64,000 nucleotides of DNA from Endomicrobiales bacterium (lineage in GTDB: Bacteria > Elusimicrobiota > Endomicrobiia > Endomicrobiales > CAWCFT01): positions 121,454-185,453 of the forward strand of contig CAWCFT010000015.1 in assembly GCA_963794945.1 (NCBI GenBank). Reading direction: 5' to 3'. Position numbers: made by a program. Position 1 is the first letter of the stretch. Each line of letters begins with the position of its first letter. This document shows positions 39,001 through 57,000 of this stretch, one piece after another.

Positions 39001-42000
39001 TTACACCTATATAAGCTCCCCTTGAATACAGGAACACAACACAGAAAAAGCCAAGGATAGCTGATATAGCAAAAAGTATTTTCGTAATAATTTTGCTTGA
39101 AGGTAATGTTCCAAAAAAGACAAAGATATAACTACCAAGGAAGGCTGCCAATTCATTCGGCCCCAAATATGAAAAAGTTCCGTTGATTCTATCTCTGTAC
39201 TGAGGTCCCGACATCCACCTGATCTGCATAAGCGTATAATAATCTATTAACAGAACCGCCATTGCCATAAAAAAGATAAGCCTTTTTATATCTTTGATGC
39301 TCTTAACATTATTTAAAACGATAAAAAATATTATAGGGAACATTATGTAATTCTTCCAATTTTGAAGACGTTCGTCCGCAAGACTGAAAGGAAGAGGTAT
39401 CTGAAGATATAAAGAGCCGAGACATAGCGATATAAATGTATAAATAATAAAAAATATTAGTACATAATTCAGGGGTGTATATTCTAACTTGAAGTTTTTT
39501 CTGGATTTGAAAAACCATCCGATAAGCATCGCGATAAGAACTATATTAATAATATCCTTCCCTAAAGGAAAGGCTTGTAATCTATCTATTACATTTCTTA
39601 AAGGTAATAAAGGGATGAGGAAAAGCAGGCCCAGATTTATTTTTCCTGCCAAGGAGAAAAGGACAACTAATATCAATCCCACAACGTATATAACAACAAC
39701 TGCTAAACTAACCATTTATGTTCACGTGACTGTTGATTTTTATTACTTTAGCCGGTATGCCAACCACTGTAGCATTATCAGGCACATCGTGAAGAACGAC
39801 CGCATTTGCCCCTATTCTTACGTTATTGCCAACCCTTATATCGCCCAATACTTTTGCTCCTGCTCCAATATATACATTATCGCCTAATTTTGGCGAGCCC
39901 TTTTTGCCCACACCAAGAACTCCGATTGTAACGCCTTGAGCTATATTGCAGTTTTTGCCGATGATTACGTCTTTATAAACAACGATGTTGCCAAAATGCC
40001 CTATATAAAAACCAGGCCCTATGCAAGTTTCAAATGAAATTGATATGCCCGTTGTCATCTCAACAAATTTCTTTAGGAAAAAACATATAAATCTTCCAAT
40101 AGGCGCGATAACGGGGGTTGAATTCCTATTAAAGTAGGCGCCAATACGATGAACCACTATTGCCCAGACTTCTTGCGTGAACGCTAAATGAAAAAGCCTT
40201 TTTGTTAACGATTCCTTTTTATCTGAATAACTGTATCTACTAAGGTCTTCTTTGATCATTTTTAACCGTCCCCATACATACTTACCGCGAAGTACAAATA
40301 ATGTCAATTACTTTTTACCCCAAAAATAAGCCTTTAATTGCTCAGGCCATGTTTCTCTAGGCCCATTTATTCCCATTTTTGCCCAGTTAGCAGCACATTT
40401 TTCTTTATACTCAGTGACCGAACATATAACTTTAGCAGGCACTCCGGCCACAATAGTGTCCGGAGGAACATCTTTTGTAACTACTGAACCTGCTCCAACA
40501 ATTGAATTAGGCCCTATAGTGATGTTTGGCATTAGAATACTATTTATACCTATAAAACAATTGTCTTTGATCTCGATAGTTCCATATTTATTTAAATCCG
40601 GCATTTCTTCTCTATATATCCAACAACTGCCGTCATGTGTAAGGAATATAACTCCGGCAGTGATTGTGCAATGATTCCCAATCCTTATTAAATATGGCTC
40701 AGTCCCTAAACTTAAAATGAATATTCTGTTATTTGTTCCTATTTGACACCCTTGTTTCCTGAAATAATTCTCTATCGTCATTTCATTGCAATTCATCATA
40801 TCAATCTTGTTTAATAATGCTCTGTAAATCTTCTTAAATAGAGATACCAACTTCATTTAAACCTCTTATGTATACAACTTTTAGAAAAACACGGTTTATT
40901 ACGGTTTAATCAACTGTTTGATTTCATTAAATGCATCTTTATCTGTTAGATATAAGATAGCAGCAAATGGCAATACAGCTATAAACATCAAACAACCAAA
41001 TCTCAAAAATAAATTACTAATATAATGGGCATAATTGCATTTAAAAACCACCACAGCAATAAACATTACTGATGATGACAATAAAGCAGGACCAAAAACA
41101 TTAACCAAATTACTAAAGCTTATCGTGAGGTACTTTCTTATCCAGTAGATCTCAAATGATAATCTTGCCAGTGCAGCCACAGAAACTACAACTGCCACTC
41201 CATTCACCCCGAATATCTTTGCCGCTGGGATAATAAATCCCAAGAATAGGCTTACCTGGATTGATGCACTCCACAAATTTATCCTGGGTTTTCCCATCGC
41301 TAGGAATAAAGCGGATATGGGAAGAGAGATAAGGCTAAACATTCCTCCCCATGCAAGGATCTTTAAGATTGGGATAGCACTGACCCATTTATTTCCATAT
41401 GCCAGTTTCAAGAATTCGCTCCCCAACAAAAATAACCCGACACCCAAGGGGATGGCTACTATCGAAATATATTTTAAAACCTTAAGAAATGCTTTTTGAA
41501 GAGCTTCTATATTATAGCATAATCTTGTAAATGCCGGATACACCACACCGTATACCTTGTTGCCGAAATAATCCGACCCTATATTCGCGACATTAAAGGC
41601 TATTGAATAAAATCCAAGCATAGCCGTTCCTAGCAGTTTACCAACTAGGATATTATCCAAATATGTTTTTAAGAATAACAAAATTGAGGTAAGAAAAACA
41701 TATTTCCCGAAGTTGAGCATTTCTAATGCCAATTTCAGATTGAATTTAAATTTCGGTTTCCATTTAGCGGCAATCCAGATAATGGCCATATATACTAACA
41801 TCCTTAATAAGTATGCGTAAACCAGTGACCATATTCCAAATTTAAAAAATGCTAGAATTACTGCACCTGCATTATAAACCAGCGACCCGTAAAAATCGGC
41901 CATAGAAGAGTATTTAAATTGCATACGCTTATCAAGAGTAACTGCTGGTACTTTAGTAAAAGAAGTAATTACAAACATCAGGCCTAAAGCCCTTACTACC

Positions 42001-54000: not shown

Positions 54001-57000
54001 GCCATTTTCAGAATTCTCAAGCCTTTCTGCAACATATGCCGCTTCAAGCTGTTTTAGCAGCATTTTGTATATGTCTTCATCAACCGCCCTATTTCTTTCA
54101 ATGTTCGTTATCTCTGTTTCACTTACATTAGCGGGAACAGTTTGATCCTGTCCCTCAGTGCTTTTCTTGCGTTTATTAAGAGTCTCCAGTTCCATCTCAA
54201 CTTGTTTTAATTCCTGTTTTGCCTGAACATAAAGCGGATTGAGCATGAATACATTTTCTTTAACGTTCGATTTGCCCATTTCCGCATCAATCTTGTCTTT
54301 GATTTCCTTAATTTCTGTTTTTAACGACAAAACCCTTGGATTATCCGGCTTTGCGTCGAAACTGATCTTAGCAAGCTCCATCTCCAATTGTCCCTGGCGA
54401 GCCTGCAGCTGGGCGATTGCAGGGTTTTCCGCGTTCGTTATCTGGGAAGGCACTATCCTCTGCATGCTCTGGATCTTTTCCAGAAGCAATAACTTTTTCT
54501 GAACCGCGGTTTGCAGGTCAGTATCCAGTTTGCTGGCTGAAACATCCTGTTGGGAGCTGTCAAGTTTTTGCTTGTAAATAGCCAGCTGCTGCTGAATAAA
54601 CCCTATCGCTATCTTTGCCTCTTCCTTCTGCATACTGTCGTTCATAGATATTAGCGAGCTGGCCAGGGCGTTAACGACCTGCTGCGCATTATAGGGGCTT
54701 CTGTCCTGATAAGCTATCTCCACCAAATTCCCGTTTTTCAAGACAAATCTCATCCTGTTCTTAAAAGCCTTGATAACAATTTCGCGGTCCGCAGGCGAGG
54801 TTATATTATCTGCCAAGTGTAGCTGAGATACCATCTGTTCCAGCCGGGGCCACGCTGTTACCTGTTTTACAATTGTCTCAAACTCATTCTCAACATCATG
54901 AGATGTCGCCTGATCTTTTACAACAGCGCCGACAATGTTTTTTGTTTGAATTTGCACGAGCGCGCTTGTTTCATAGGTCTTAGGAAGCATTGACCCTACA
55001 ATAACCGTTATAATAGATATAATGATCAGGGGTATAATAAAGAGGTTCAGTCTTCTTATAACTACCCCTACGATCTCATCAAAATTGCGCTGTGTATTTG
55101 CTTCTTTGTCCATTTTCTCCTCTATATGGTTTTCAGGTTCAAGGGGTTGCCGTTGTCGGAACCATGGCCTGCCGGGCCGTCGTAACAGCTGTGGTAGGGC
55201 TCAGCAAATCAGTCAAGAACGATACGAGCTGACCCCACAGGGTTTTTGGGACGTAAACAACATCTCCCGGTTTTATAATGATATTATTTTTAGTTTCGCC
55301 ACGGTAAAGTACCCTATAAAGGTCGACTACTCGCTGCACCGGCCTGTTTTCAGAAGTTGTAATTATATAAACTCTGTGAGTAGCGGCAAAATGCGTAGGC
55401 AAATTAGCCATAATTATCGCATCCCTGAGCGTTATTTTTTTCCCTCCGGTCGAGTACCGCCCGGGCAGATTCACTTCACCAAAGACATAAATCATTTCGC
55501 TGGCATAACGGGTGATATCTACTGTAACTTGCGGATTATTTATATATTTATCCATTATTGCCTCGCACGCCACCTCAGCTCCCGTTTTTGACAGGCCGGC
55601 CAATTTGATATCTCCAATGCCCGGCACCAGGATCTTCCCATCTGGCTTTATGGTATAATCACCGCTCCACTCGGGATGGCGTTCAACCATTATACGAATT
55701 ACATCATCCTGGCCTAAAATATAATCATCCATTTTCGCGTTGATATTCGTCATTTTTTGGGCATCGCTCTTTTTCATGGTTGCGCATGATGATGCCATAA
55801 TCATGACGGACAACAACGCCGAAACTAAAAACAAGGCCTTCACATTTTCATTATTCATCTTTTCCTCAATATTGCCGCCCCATCTCTAACATGACAGGCA
55901 GCTTTGGCACAACTCTATACAAATCTTTAGCCTTTTAGAATAGTACATCGTTACAACTTTAACAAATATCTTGAGATTATGCAAGTGTATTTTAGTTGCA
56001 AAACAAATGAATTTACTATTTTGCACTGCCGCTTTGTTGCGGCTGGGTTTAGCCGGGAGCGTATTTAGTCCACAGGCAATGCGTTAAATGTAACCGACAT
56101 TTAAGGCAGTGATGTCTATTTCCATTTGCAGTCCGACCAAGTGTCGCGATTCCGCCTGATCTAACAAACACTTTTACGCTAAATCCGTTTAAATGCTTTA
56201 CAAAACTATGTTTTTATTTTCGAACTCTCTGTGCATTAAAAGCATCAGCGCAGCAGATACAGTTATTACAAAATCTATCGCCGTGGTCATGATTACTTTC
56301 ATCACGAGCATCCATAAGGTAATTTCCGGGAACAGAGCACTCATAAAATACGTCATTTTAAAATGCAGGTAATACATAGGCGCAAGAAGCATGTTGGGTA
56401 GCAGTATAATAGCAAGCGATATTAAAGGATATTCCTTAACTAGAAACAACGTCCTCTTTATGGATGCCAGTATTTTTTTGTTCTCTATTATAATTGCCGG
56501 GATAGAATAAACAAAGATTGTTTGAGCTACTGTTCCTGCGAAAAACTCAGCGATAAATATATGCTTCGGGGAATGAAATACTATATAAAAACTGCCTAGA
56601 AATTTTACCATTATAGAGTTGGCCGTCATCACCAGCGCCCAGATGAAGAACATGGCAAAATATTTGTTGAAAGTTTTTGAGATGCATATTTTCCAATCCG
56701 GCTCCGTATTGCTTAGAATTTGAAATATCACAGCTATAGTCACACCGCTGGATAGTAAGCCGGTAACAAACATTAGCATGTTTTTTCCGTAACCGAATAG
56801 CTCGGGCAAAATGAGGAAGTTCGCAGGATAGTGGAGGTACTTCTCACCCCAGAGAGACCTGATATAGGGAGTGAAATTCGGCGAGACTGGAGGCTTCGAG
56901 GCATAATATAAAGCGGCCAAGAGAACCAGGTCAAGGAAACCCATTATGAGGAAAGGTGTCATTGCCCCGGGATATTTCCTTAAAGTCCTCCAAAGCTTAG

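Follow-up and report, generated by a model that had tools for sequence, protein, structure and literature searches.

In a 64,000-nucleotide stretch of the genome of an Endomicrobiales bacterium (contig CAWCFT010000015.1; hereafter the window), an exopolysaccharide (EPS) locus carries a gene for a PorV/PorQ-family barrel close to its export genes. The position of this barrel next to wza/wzc is the conserved element of the arrangement and is found in all seven members of its clade. In the window, the barrel gene is preceded by that of a mini-protein which, apart from its signal peptide, is nothing but a T9SS-type C-terminal domain (CTD). We tentatively propose that the short Wza has the barrel as its partner in the outer membrane and that the CTD-only protein caps this barrel at the surface, a reading that is quite possible although short of probable. 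The arrangement suggests that a docking pair from a secretion system was co-opted to form the outermost part of a machinery for polysaccharide export.

Layout and descent of the exopolysaccharide locus

A single Wzx/Wzy EPS locus extends on the minus strand at least from position 58275 to position 33455 of the window (Table 1). Gene order, sizes, and family matches near wza and wzc, obtained by ORF and Pfam/NCBIfam profile searches, all agreed with the preliminary description of this DNA; its gene content was correct, but its span was too short. The E-values of the pepcterm_ChnLen, pepcterm_TyrKin, pepcterm_export, and stp2 rows were reproduced, and all four rows are below their cut-offs. The FemAB-like genes described earlier are present, but two of the five (50231-51330 and 44559-45673) are split by frameshifts; against TIGR03019, the intact FemAB-like genes reach only 26.6 bits (cut-off 260). 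The second, paralogous EPS locus of the genome (L001) was recovered as well and has a core identical in make-up.

Table 1. Features of the EPS locus and of the same-strand genes downstream of it (window positions; scores as E-values unless given in bits)
Feature	Position	Strand	Evidence
Priming polyprenyl-phosphate sugar-phosphate transferase, 331 aa	57280..58275	-	PF02397 Bac_transf 9e-62; TIGR03025 and TIGR03013 under cut-off
Polytopic membrane protein, conserved, 285 aa	56198..57055	-	Homologs in relatives' loci
Wza-like short OPX (class-3 / D1D2), 239 aa	55139..55858	-	Poly_export 4.8e-19; SLBB_2
Wzc, polysaccharide co-polymerase and tyrosine autokinase fusion, 712 aa	52975..55113	-	Wzz, GNVR, AAA_31; TIGR01007 168 bits (cut-off 108); under cut-off, TIGR03007 6.3e-52 and TIGR03018 3.4e-42
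CTD-only mini-protein, 119 aa	52599..52958	-	TIGR04183; PorZ C-terminus
PorV/PorQ-family outer-membrane barrel, ~14 strands, 327 aa	51583..52566	-	NF033709
FemAB-like (Acetyltransf_6-type) gene 1, frameshift near 50572-50656	50231..51330	-	N- and C-terminal parts in two overlapping frames
Acyl carrier protein, 81 aa	49965..50210	-	PP-binding 5.2e-05; ACP NCBIfam rows under cut-off
247-aa protein	49088..49831	-	Nothing significant in Pfam/NCBIfam searches
Three intact FemAB-like genes (47940-49061, 46832-47962, 45679-46809)	45679..49061	-	PF13480 Acetyltransf_6 3.8e-31, 8.2e-27, 2.5e-17
FemAB-like gene 5, broken into 110-aa and 226-aa pieces	44559..45673	-	Acetyltransf_6 1.1e-23 (C-terminal piece); 110-aa N-terminal piece similar to N-termini of paralogs
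GT4 glycosyltransferase and polysaccharide deacetylase fusion, 744 aa	42328..44562	-	Glycos_transf_1 6e-41; Polysacc_deac_1 6.6e-31; stp2 8.5e-48, under cut-off
Wzx flippase, 479 aa	40899..42338	-	Polysacc_synt_3 8.6e-68
Two hexapeptide-repeat acyltransferases	39708..40856	-	Hexapep; EpsC-like and CysE-like rows under cut-off
Wzy / O-antigen-ligase-type polymerase, 433 aa	38414..39715	-	Wzy_C 2.6e-22; TIGR03097 74.4 bits (cut-off 188)
GT4, GT2, deacetylase, GT4, and DUF218 genes; continuation past the span described earlier	33455..38316	-	Pfam
Downstream same-strand set (following three rows)	24028..32821	-	Own HMMs and Pfam
Two fn3-rich CTD proteins	31460-32821, 26932-30885	-	Own CTD HMM
UDP-glucose dehydrogenase	25637-26884	-	Pfam
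Second PorV-family barrel, 483 aa	24028-25479	-	Own barrel HMM

The window locus is a Wzx/Wzy EPS locus from XrtA/PEP-CTERM-type ancestors that appears to have lost its exosortase. The earlier assignment of both loci to this type holds by descent, because a genome of the same order (G065) has a syntenic locus in the order Bac_transf (with a PEP-CTERM motif), 278-aa membrane protein, TPR, Exosortase_EpsH, DUF3485/EpsI, wza, wzc, and barrel. The 285-aa membrane protein of the window, which gave zero matches in Pfam and NCBIfam searches, is the ortholog of this 278-aa protein (L036:16344-17180; 30% identity, 2e-50) and also resembles L034:13207-14082 (32% identity, 7e-45). It was ruled out as an exosortase, having zero similarity to that of G065. 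In agreement with the preliminary description, the genome carrying the window (G000) yielded no exosortase in a search whose control matched in one of 14 genomes; since G000 is 85.9% complete, an exosortase or another porin could lie in the missing part. The priming transferases of relatives have an embedded VPEPSTM or IPEPSTM. The same place reads IGNNESM in G000, in which no intact PEP motif was seen, and this fits a real loss of the exosortase.

The barrel, its clade, and the CTD-only protein

The barrel reaches 136.8 bits with NF033709, above the cut-off of 90, but stays below the cut-offs of PorQ (87.9 bits, cut-off 220) and PorV (52.4 bits, cut-off 250); its profile (A1) matched PorV 6h3i_F at 1.7e-14. 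The AF2 model is of moderate quality (pTM 0.70, pLDDT 66); Foldseek ranked PorV 8gl6_F and 6h3i_F first, followed by FadL, TodX, and OmpG. The barrels next to wza/wzc in the two G000 loci, described as 64% identical, share 63% or 64% identity in two comparisons. In a tree of 43 barrels, those adjoining wza/wzc form one clade of seven (SH-aLRT 98), with two members each from G000 and G177 and one each from G121, G133, and G065 (five genomes, four families, one order). All seven lie directly behind wza, wzc, or a kinase gene. The mini-CTD is present in three (both of G000 and that of G121). It is absent between wza/wzc and the barrel in the other four and is thus dispensable for the role of the barrel. 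In the two mini-less members with a readable hairpin at 118-138 (G133 and G065), this hairpin is shortened by 3 and 5 residues, respectively. The second barrel of the window groups with two EPS-locus barrels of G177 in a separate clade (SH-aLRT 100).

The mini-protein consists of a signal peptide and a T9SS type-A-like beta-sandwich, and a passenger domain is absent. The TIGR04183 model gives it 30.3 bits (cut-off 23) and PF18962 gives 27.0 bits (cut-off 27), and its top NCBIfam row covers the C-terminal 88 positions of PorZ (7e-18). Its AF2 model (pLDDT 80.6) has seven strands, for which Foldseek listed PorZ 5m11 and PorU 6za2 before the CTDs in 8glk, 8gl8, and 8gl6. The CTDs of PorZ and PorU are its nearest relatives in sequence and fold; PorQ and PorV are reported to keep PorZ and PorU at the surface (PMC5562754). 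The identity between the mini-proteins of the two G000 loci, given earlier as 59%, is 58% or 61% in two comparisons. A third ortholog occurs in G121 (locus L041; 41% identity), and the signal peptide is intact in all three loci (identities 58% and 41%). The count of at least seven cargo-less CTD proteins in G000 was borne out: an N-terminal hydrophobic signal is present in 7 of 14 small CTD ORFs, and the remaining seven resemble C-terminal fragments of longer, indel-broken genes. Other true CTD-only proteins of G000 likewise adjoin barrels belonging to larger envelope sets, which fits a structural-subunit role. These partner barrels are barrel-TPR fusions, one beside a FliF-FliG fusion and one beside a sigma factor and a response regulator.

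CTD-then-barrel pairs occur genome-wide in G000 (21 of 27 barrels, adjacent or within 3 kb). With NCBIfam models, the pairing reported earlier proved real: a CTD gene lies directly upstream on the same strand at 17 of 25 barrel loci (P ~6e-28 if ~30 CTD genes are placed randomly in ~2,700 genes, a rough estimate derived from the size of the genome) and inside 1.5 kb at three more. Our own HMMs placed a CTD directly upstream of 16 of 27 barrels and within 3 kb of another five. A phylum search gave the same pairing at 12 of 19 foreign loci, and 31 of 80 metagenome loci showed it as well. The cargo of the CTD proteins ranges from 0 to ~2,600 aa.

A complex of the barrel (residues 26-327) and the mini-protein (residues 24-119) was modelled with a score of 0.91; the best of three controls reached 0.00. 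Of 157 solved complexes, 116 attained this mark, as did 2 of 215 mismatched pairs; these counts are rough since our own alignments were used. Contacts agreed to at least 98% over three model runs, with partner pLDDT of at least 90. The predicted contacts on the barrel involve the N-terminal segment 26-38 and the hairpins at 84/86, 118-130, 171-178, 209-216, 272-275, and 309-312, all on one loop face in the AF2 strand map; the extracellular face was assigned by the usual OMP topology rule. The 118-138 hairpin is the main predicted docking site. The model supports binding of the mini-CTD to its barrel, but PorV-CTD complexes have been solved (8gl6 and related entries; PMC10994853), so the score may merely reflect likeness to them.

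Possible roles of the pair in polymer export

Wza comprises Poly_export and one SLBB, that is, D1 and D2 only. The PRK15078 model has 380 positions, of which Wza aligns with 67-252 only, and it scores 100.8 bits against TIGR03027 (cut-off 180). A lipobox-like Cys right after the signal peptide marks it as probably a lipoprotein, and its C-terminal tail of ~30 aa is kept across orthologs. Class-3 / D1D2 OPX proteins are reported to require an outer-membrane barrel partner (PMC9601211; PMC12819527; PMC9603273), and WzaB is reported to bind its porin via its C-terminal tail (PMC12819527). Among the locus ORFs scanned, the PorV/PorQ-family barrel is the sole outer-membrane-type protein found. Profile searches of G000 gave zero matches to EpsL (TIGR03014) and a single match to TIGR03016 (16 bits, E 0.004).

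In our tentative model, the barrel encoded right behind wzc would pair with the short Wza, and the two would form a composite translocon for the polymer, comparable to Myxococcus EpsY/EpsX or WzaB/WzpB and built with a 14-strand PorV-type barrel. The 119-aa protein would leave via Sec and gain the surface, perhaps through the SprA-like protein of the genome. There it would stay uncleaved, like the tails of PorZ and PorU on PorQ and PorV, with its beta-sandwich seated against the loop face of the cognate barrel. Because it has no passenger domain, it may work as a cap or gate subunit rather than as displayed cargo. This model is supported by the short OPX in need of a barrel and its conserved tail, the barrel as the sole outer-membrane-type protein, the seven-member clade, the docking score, the PorZ/PorU-like CTD, the conservation of the mini-protein in three loci, the hairpin deletions in the mini-less G133 and G065, and the other CTD-only/barrel sets. 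Several points count against it. GldL and GldM, which bear on how the CTD would cross the outer membrane, were not found in G000, in searches whose controls were silent for both. The mini-protein is missing at four of the seven clade barrels, the docking score may reflect likeness to solved PorV-CTD complexes, the barrel model is of moderate quality, and another porin could lie in the missing part of G000. FadL/PorV-type barrels possess an N-terminal plug, which speaks against a conduit, and a permanently bound cap would obstruct one unless it is mobile. To our knowledge, all polysaccharide translocon barrels known so far have 16-18 strands, against a 14-strand conduit. A 14-strand translocon barrel is without precedent because the survey by Schwabe et al., as reported, excluded barrels of fewer than 16 strands.

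Instead of conducting the polymer, the barrel with its bound CTD could hold or nucleate the finished polymer at the surface while the polymer exits elsewhere; Wzi in group 1 capsule loci offers an analogy, as does PorQ-PorZ with its handling of anionic LPS. The barrel scores higher with PorQ (87.9 bits) than with PorV (52.4), the top matches of the mini-protein are the PorZ CTD, and PorZ is reported to bind A-LPS and to be kept by PorQ (PMC8545088, PMC5562754). A capped 14-strand barrel is also more readily imagined as a socket than a pore, and the genes downstream, transcribed in the same direction, include those of fn3-rich CTD proteins and another barrel. We nevertheless regard such an anchoring role as unlikely: the short Wza would be left without an outer-membrane exit, as the locus shows no further barrel and G000 no EpsL-type match; an obvious glycan-binding site is absent from the cargo-less CTD; and both the PorQ and PorV scores are far under the equivalog cut-offs.

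There is a slim chance that the pair is a genome-wide display cassette with decayed cargo that came to lie in the EPS locus by accident and has no export role. The frequency of CTD ORFs adjacent to or within 3 kb of barrels in G000 (21 of 27), the recurrence of the pairing in the phylum-search (12 of 19) and metagenome loci (31 of 80), and cargo sizes from 0 to ~2,600 aa are in line with this reading. Against it stand the position of seven of seven clade barrels directly behind wza, wzc, or a kinase gene across five genomes and four families of one order, and the retained signal peptide and 41-58% identity of the mini-protein over three loci. The CTD gene is wholly absent in front of four of the seven clade barrels, so display is not their conserved job. 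The preliminary description proposed that the pair took over exosortase/PEP-CTERM protein sorting in loci without XrtA. The lack of an exosortase match in G000, the degraded PEP motif of its priming transferase, and the presence of the pair in both G000 loci are in line with this idea, yet it is very improbable, and four relatives speak against it. One G065 locus houses both barrel and exosortase. G121 has wzc, mini-CTD, and barrel as well as an exosortase, whose gene terminates a different contig and follows the equivalent Bac_transf and TPR genes; the co-occurrence in G065 and G121 counts strongly against replacement of the exosortase by the pair. G177 and G133 keep the barrel, although these searches revealed no exosortase in either and their wza/wzc genes are not separated from the barrel gene by a mini-CTD, and a CTD without cargo has nothing to sort.

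Comparison with known systems

XrtA/PEP-CTERM EPS systems (TIGR03007, TIGR03018, TIGR03027, TIGR03088, TIGR03013) provide the top rows for Wza, Wzc, GT4, and the priming transferase, and synteny ties the locus to exosortase-bearing loci of same-order relatives. In contrast to these systems, G000 shows neither an exosortase, an intact PEP motif, nor an EpsL-type barrel, and all equivalog scores are sub-cut-off.

The PorV of the Flavobacterium johnsoniae SprA translocon (6h3i, 8gl6; PMC10994853) is matched by the barrel profile at 1.7e-14 and is the top Foldseek hit of the barrel, and the CTD is predicted to sit upon the barrel loops as in the PorV-substrate complex. In that complex, SprA is reported to account for over half of the CTD surface that is buried (PMC10994853), whereas the pair was modelled alone here and the SprA-like protein of G000, short at 1754 aa, scores 139.6 bits (cut-off 200). 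With Porphyromonas gingivalis PorZ-PorQ and PorU-PorV (PMC5562754, PMC8545088, PMC10947112), the system would share an uncleaved type-A CTD beta-sandwich held by a barrel of the PorV/PorQ family and the reported tie to an anionic glycan pathway; the CTDs of PorZ and PorU are also what the mini-protein matches best in sequence and fold. Unlike PorZ and PorU, of which no full-length form was found in G000, the mini-protein has no passenger domain, belongs to an Elusimicrobiota host, and is encoded within an EPS locus. PorA of P. gingivalis (PMC7712824), likewise small and equipped with a CTD, is reported to bind PorV and to reach the surface even in T9SS-machinery mutants; its FimH-like N-terminal domain (~135 aa) and signalling role set it apart from the mini-protein, which has no N-terminal domain.

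The composite class-3 (D1D2) OPX/beta-barrel translocons EpsY-EpsX, WzaB-WzpB, and ExoA-ExoB are described in Myxococcus xanthus (PMC9601211, PMC9603273, PMC12819527). The barrels there are reported to be 18-stranded and AlgE/PgaA-like, whereas that of the window is of the PorV/FadL family with ~14 strands, has an additional CTD-only subunit, and would contact its OPX only by our proposal. Both systems, as far as described, have in common a short OPX that is a lipoprotein (probably so in the window) and lacks a helix through the outer membrane, a conserved OPX C-terminal tail, and adjoining genes for Wzc and a dedicated barrel within a Wzx/Wzy locus.

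Gene content of the EPS locus and its flanks

The genes of the EPS locus in the window and of its flanks are listed in the first table. The locus reaches position 33455 and is therefore longer than was stated in the preliminary description. A paralogous locus on the same contig (L001) had been described as running from wza and wzc into a short protein made up of a signal peptide and a T9SS-type C-terminal domain (CTD), followed by a PorV/PorQ-family barrel, and this order was confirmed. Between the two loci, the CTD-only proteins are 58-61% identical and the barrels are 63-64% identical.

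Features of the window EPS locus and its flanks, in window positions
Feature	Position	Strand	Remark
PMT_2-type glycosyltransferase, methyltransferase, radical SAM gene	59099-63938	plus (PMT_2-type gene)	upstream of the locus
Radical SAM/SPASM gene	60688-61946		split in two
Bac_transf priming transferase	57280-58275	minus	
Polytopic membrane protein, 285 aa	56198-57055	minus	no family match
Wza-like protein, 239 aa	55139-55858	minus	
Wzc, 712 aa	52975-55113	minus	
CTD-only protein, 119 aa	52599-52958	minus	
PorV/PorQ-family barrel, 327 aa	51583-52566	minus	
Five tandem FemAB-like (Acetyltransf_6) genes with acyl carrier protein (ACP)	44559-51330	minus	two FemAB-like genes frameshift-split (50231-51330, 44559-45673)
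247-aa protein		minus	no match
GT4-deacetylase fusion	42328-44562	minus	
Wzx, two hexapeptide acyltransferases, Wzy		minus	
GT4, GT2, deacetylase, second GT4, DUF218 protein	to 33455	minus	
Two fn3-rich CTD proteins (453 aa; 1317 aa with 8 fn3 repeats), UDP-glucose dehydrogenase, second PorV-family barrel (483 aa)	24028-32821	minus	directly downstream of the EPS genes
Phage-type integrase, Mutator-family transposase, PIN protein, trypsin-like peptidase, TPR fragments	13757-23210		low GC (0.34-0.39)

Apart from the FemAB-like genes, the locus encodes three deacetylase domains (35297-36145 and the fusion), and L001 has one more. The FemAB-like, ACP, and deacetylase set suggests amino sugars that first lose their N-acetyl groups and next are re-acylated or aminoacylated. 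The loci of relatives additionally encode an asparagine synthase and an AMP-binding enzyme.

In the downstream flank, the low-GC stretch next to the surface-protein genes probably arose by insertion of mobile DNA. The 483-aa barrel falls in a separate clade (SH-aLRT 100) with two EPS-locus barrels of the same-order relative G177 and a barrel of the source genome at C15:15511-16488. Each of these four barrels has a UDP-glucose dehydrogenase gene next to it or nearby.

The CTD-only protein, the barrel, and their predicted contact

The 119-aa protein consists of a signal peptide (residues 1-23) and a CTD that extends through the final residue, joined by about 12 linker residues. It contains no passenger (cargo) domain. 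The protein scored 30.3 bits against TIGR04183 (cut-off 23) and was borderline against PF18962 (27.0 bits at a cut-off of 27); its best NCBIfam match was to the last 88 positions of PorZ (7e-18). The AF2 model (pLDDT 80.6, >90 for residues 50-119) is a seven-strand Ig-like beta-sandwich. Its top Foldseek matches were the CTDs of PorZ (5m11) and PorU (6za2), followed by the CTDs of NucA, RemZ, RemA, and FspA, which are substrate CTDs in SprA-PorV complexes.

The barrel matched the PorV/PorQ subfamily model NF033709 with 136.8 bits (cut-off 90) and is not an equivalog of PorQ (87.9 bits vs 220) or PorV (52.4 vs 250). A profile of ten orthologs matched Flavobacterium johnsoniae PorV in the PDB (1.7e-14). 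The AF2 model, of moderate confidence (pLDDT 66, pTM 0.70), has about 14 strands and is FadL-like; Foldseek ranked PorV first, followed by FadL, TodX, and OmpG. The homologue search returned 10 matches, of which P0002, P0003, and P0005 (76%, 66%, and 45% identical) lie on short contigs.

A complex of the mature barrel (residues 26-327, ten-row alignment) and the mature CTD-only protein (residues 24-119, eight-row alignment) was modelled. The complex scored 0.91, and the best of three controls scored 0.00. Among solved complexes, 116 of 157 attain that mark, compared with 2 of 215 mismatched pairs; these figures are a rough guide only, as our own alignments were used. The model runs shared at least 98% of contacts, with a partner pLDDT of at least 90. 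The modelling lends in silico support to binding of the CTD-only protein to the barrel; the score may reflect likeness, because PorV-CTD complexes have already been solved (PMC10994853). The predicted contacts involve the N-terminal residues 26-38 of the barrel and the hairpins at 84/86, 118-130, 171-178, 209-216, 272-275, and 309-312. These hairpins are alternate turns in the AF2 strand map and therefore belong to one barrel face. By the usual topology rule for outer-membrane proteins this face would be extracellular, in which case the CTD would cover it like a lid, much as CTDs rest on PorV loops. The related barrels of G133 and G065, whose loci lack the CTD-only protein, carry 3- and 5-residue deletions, respectively, in the 118-138 hairpin. 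This is suggestive, but n = 2, and the G177 barrels are full-length there.

Relatives, exosortase, and the distribution of CTD/barrel pairs

The best matches to the window barrel in other genomes all lay within polysaccharide loci. Phylogenetic analysis of 43 barrels united the seven linked to wza/wzc as one clade (SH-aLRT 98) with unresolved inner branching. A barrel match better than 1e-45 was present in only four other genomes of the 201 in the phylum sample. Wza/Wzc occurred near a barrel in 2 of 80 loci of named-genome contigs, both duplicating arrangements already counted, and in 0 of 80 metagenome loci. The EPS-linked clade therefore rests on five genomes only.

Gene order around wza/wzc-linked barrels in the paralogous locus and in same-order relatives
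Genome or locus	Gene order	Exosortase
L001 (source genome)	TPR, wza, wzc, 113-aa CTD protein, barrel, GT, four FemAB-like genes (one as two ORFs), deacetylase, Wzy, flippase, GT2, GT4, methyltransferase	
G121 (L015, L123, L041)	wzc, 123-aa CTD-only protein, barrel	on separate contig
G177, locus 1	Bac_transf, membrane protein, TPR, wza, GNVR protein, kinase, barrel	not found
G177, locus 2	GNVR protein, kinase, barrel, DUF218, three FemAB-like genes	not found
G133	wza, barrel directly after	not found
G065 (L036)	Bac_transf (PEP-CTERM motif), 278-aa membrane protein, TPR, Exosortase_EpsH, DUF3485/EpsI, wza, wzc, barrel, VanZ, ACP	inside EPS locus

The reported absence of exosortase from the source genome was upheld, as no PF09721 match was obtained in this assembly (85.9% complete). 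Exosortase matches were also lacking in G177, G133, and a further genome, G119. In G121, the exosortase gene is the last on a separate 9-kb contig, where a Bac_transf gene with a PEP-CTERM motif and a TPR gene precede it; this contig may represent the absent upstream portion of the locus with the CTD-only protein and the barrel. The 285-aa membrane protein of the window is an ortholog of the proteins at the same position in G065 and G177. It was considered as a cryptic exosortase and rejected, being unrelated to exosortase.

Immediately ahead of the catalytic domain, the priming transferase sequence reads VPEPSTM or IPEPSTM in G065 and G121 and IGNNESM in the source genome. As an embedded PEP-CTERM motif (PF07589), the element was matched in these exosortase-bearing relatives at L036:17323-18801 (8e-06) and L121:4790-5623 (3.8e-06). 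It sits at a transmembrane segment, not at the C-terminus, and is degraded in the priming transferase of the exosortase-less source genome. The E-values reported for pepcterm_ChnLen, pepcterm_TyrKin, pepcterm_export, and stp2 were reproduced, all under the equivalog cut-offs. The bit scores were 100.8 vs 180 for TIGR03027, 176.4 vs 279 for TIGR03007, 144.1 vs 231 for TIGR03018, 163.3 vs 409 for TIGR03088, and 26.6 vs 260 for TIGR03019. We conclude, from sequence comparison, that the loci of the source genome are reduced XrtA-type loci and that the conserved novelty of the lineage is the PorV-type barrel after wza/wzc.

For this genome without exosortase, the preliminary description had proposed that the CTD/barrel pair is an exosortase substitute. 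The CTD-only protein is present in three of the seven clade loci. None was found between wza/wzc and the barrel in the G177, G133, and G065 loci, and the 530-nt gap before the G065 barrel holds no CTD ORF. In G121, it coexists with an exosortase. It is therefore no replacement for exosortase sorting, and a takeover of exosortase/PEP-CTERM sorting by the pair is very improbable. This settles that the loci are exosortase-derived and that the pair is not an exosortase substitute.

CTD/barrel pairing was evaluated across the source genome and the phylum. The NCBIfam model identified 25 barrel loci in the source genome, and our own HMM identified 27. Of the 25, 17 are immediately preceded by a CTD on the same strand; with our own HMMs the figure is 16 of the 27, the CTD HMM being built from the last 88 residues only. 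By the latter count, five further barrels have a CTD within 3 kb. The 17 of 25 correspond to P ~6e-28 if about 30 CTD genes are placed at random among about 2,700 genes, the latter figure being our own rough gene count. The barrel family occurs in 125 of the 201 sampled phylum genomes. An adjacent CTD was found at 12 of the 19 foreign barrel loci fetched from this sample and at 31 of 80 metagenome barrel loci.

Fourteen CTD ORFs of the source genome are 165 aa or shorter, and seven of them carry a hydrophobic N-terminal signal. The other seven were rejected as CTD-only proteins. They lack a signal and are read as frameshift-broken ends of larger genes because six, in fetched loci, overlap or abut a longer upstream ORF. 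On a metagenome contig (L211, 411-1874), a protein of about 125 aa with a signal peptide and a CTD directly precedes a PorV-family barrel. This one candidate among 80 loci indicates that CTD-only proteins occur sporadically outside the source genome; loci L079 and L100 hold more candidates.

The other true CTD-only proteins of the source genome adjoin barrels that resemble parts of larger envelope sets. At L005 (C3:42000-49000 of the source genome; 3030-6970), a CTD-only protein is followed by a 543-aa PorV-family barrel fused to C-terminal TPR repeats. The pair directly precedes a FliF-FliG fusion gene, and CheD and two response regulators lie before it; barrel and CTD may be the outer-membrane end of a FliF-FliG rotor-like machine. 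Another set comprises a sigma factor, a response regulator, a 718-aa barrel-TPR fusion, and a CTD-only protein. At L004 (C8:39000-47000; 5472-5945), a Wzb-like low-molecular-weight phosphotyrosine phosphatase gene (1.9e-16) adjoins another true CTD-only protein, whose barrel is frameshifted; the two wzc genes are distant from this site.

T9SS components were also sought in the source genome. Full-length PorU and PorZ were not found, matches being limited to CTD regions. GldL and GldM had no match, which is uninformative on absence, as no control genome matched either. A 1754-aa protein matched SprA/Sov (6.8e-41, 139.6 bits; cut-off 200), with no Pfam hit and no PDB sequence hit, and may be a reduced SprA-like pore. 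It is encoded at L002 (C5:36000-52000; 3155-8419), in the vicinity of lptF and lptG and of a 521-aa PorV-family barrel that adjoins a TPR gene. We know of no description of a T9SS in Elusimicrobiota.

Proposed role and comparison with known translocons

The Wza of the window locus has Poly_export, one SLBB, and a lipobox-like Cys; it is limited to D1D2, with no Wza_C helix. It aligns to positions 67-252 of the 380-position Wza model and has a conserved tail of about 30 residues beyond the SLBB. Short (class-3, 280 aa or fewer) Wza-type polysaccharide export (OPX) proteins, the most frequent type of polysaccharide export protein according to PMC12819527, are reported to be unable to span the outer membrane; in Myxococcus, a dedicated porin partners the short OPX and binds its C-terminal tail (PMC9601211; PMC12819527). 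In the source genome, the barrel is the third gene after wza and the sole outer-membrane-type protein found among the scanned ORFs of the locus. EpsL/TIGR03016 barrels were considered as alternative partners and rejected: EpsL had no match in the source genome or G065, TIGR03016 gave a single 16-bit match in the former and none in the latter, and the matches in G121, G133, and G177 were weak and under cut-off.

Because the short Wza would need a porin, the barrel is the only outer-membrane candidate found among the scanned ORFs of the locus, and EpsL is not matched, we tentatively favour, at somewhat less than an even chance, a composite translocon. Short Wza and PorV-type barrel would form the exit, and the CTD-only protein would dock on the barrel as a cap or gate. 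Against this reading, a permanent lid would block the pore, the CTD-only protein is dispensable in four clade loci, and, to our knowledge, a 14-strand polysaccharide exit has no precedent, the known partners of class-3 OPX proteins being 16-18-strand porins only.

The main rival is a Wzi-like or PorQ-PorZ-like anchoring role. PorQ and PorV are described as holding PorZ and PorU on the cell surface (PMC5562754), and it is the PorZ CTD that heads the matches of the CTD-only protein; the barrel of the window is no PorQ equivalog, and we regard this role as unlikely. That the pair is a hitch-hiking display cassette is somewhat less likely still; the envelope-set contexts favour the cargo-less CTD as a structural subunit of such barrels, not decayed cargo.

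The composite translocon could be one case of a wider principle, which we consider doubtful at present. CTD and PorV-type barrel would then be a plug and socket, a general outer-membrane block independent of T9SS cargo display; in Elusimicrobiota, the cargo-less CTD would be the removable lid of a Wzx/Wzy exit gate, and the same block would form the outer-membrane end of further envelope machines, one example being the barrel-TPR fusion next to the rotor-like FliF-FliG gene. Under this reading, the locus would represent a fourth outer-membrane kind of polysaccharide exit, its gate being a protein lid derived from a secretion system.

The OPX/porin principle and CTD/PorV recognition are already known. 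New is their combination, with a conserved cargo-less CTD, in an XrtA-derived EPS locus. A full-text literature search, with subscription journals and supplements outside its scope, yielded no paper dealing with CTD-only proteins and none on CTD/PorV-like pairs from Elusimicrobiota. The available text of the two OPX surveys mentions neither PorV, FadL, nor Elusimicrobia, and one of them discarded, by design, barrels with fewer than 16 strands. If the composite translocon is correct, its PorV-type barrel and the cargo-less CTD protein dedicated to it would enlarge the range of polysaccharide exits. T9SS-type CTD/PorV recognition would then work outside Bacteroidota and outside protein display, and the pair would offer a minimal two-protein system (about 95 and 300 residues) in which the hold of PorV-family barrels on CTDs could be examined.

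The arrangement shares with the class-3 OPX translocons of Myxococcus a short OPX protein and a barrel encoded no more than five genes away from it. It differs in the barrel, which here is a PorV/FadL-type barrel of about 14 strands and not an AlgE/PgaA-like barrel of 16-18 strands.
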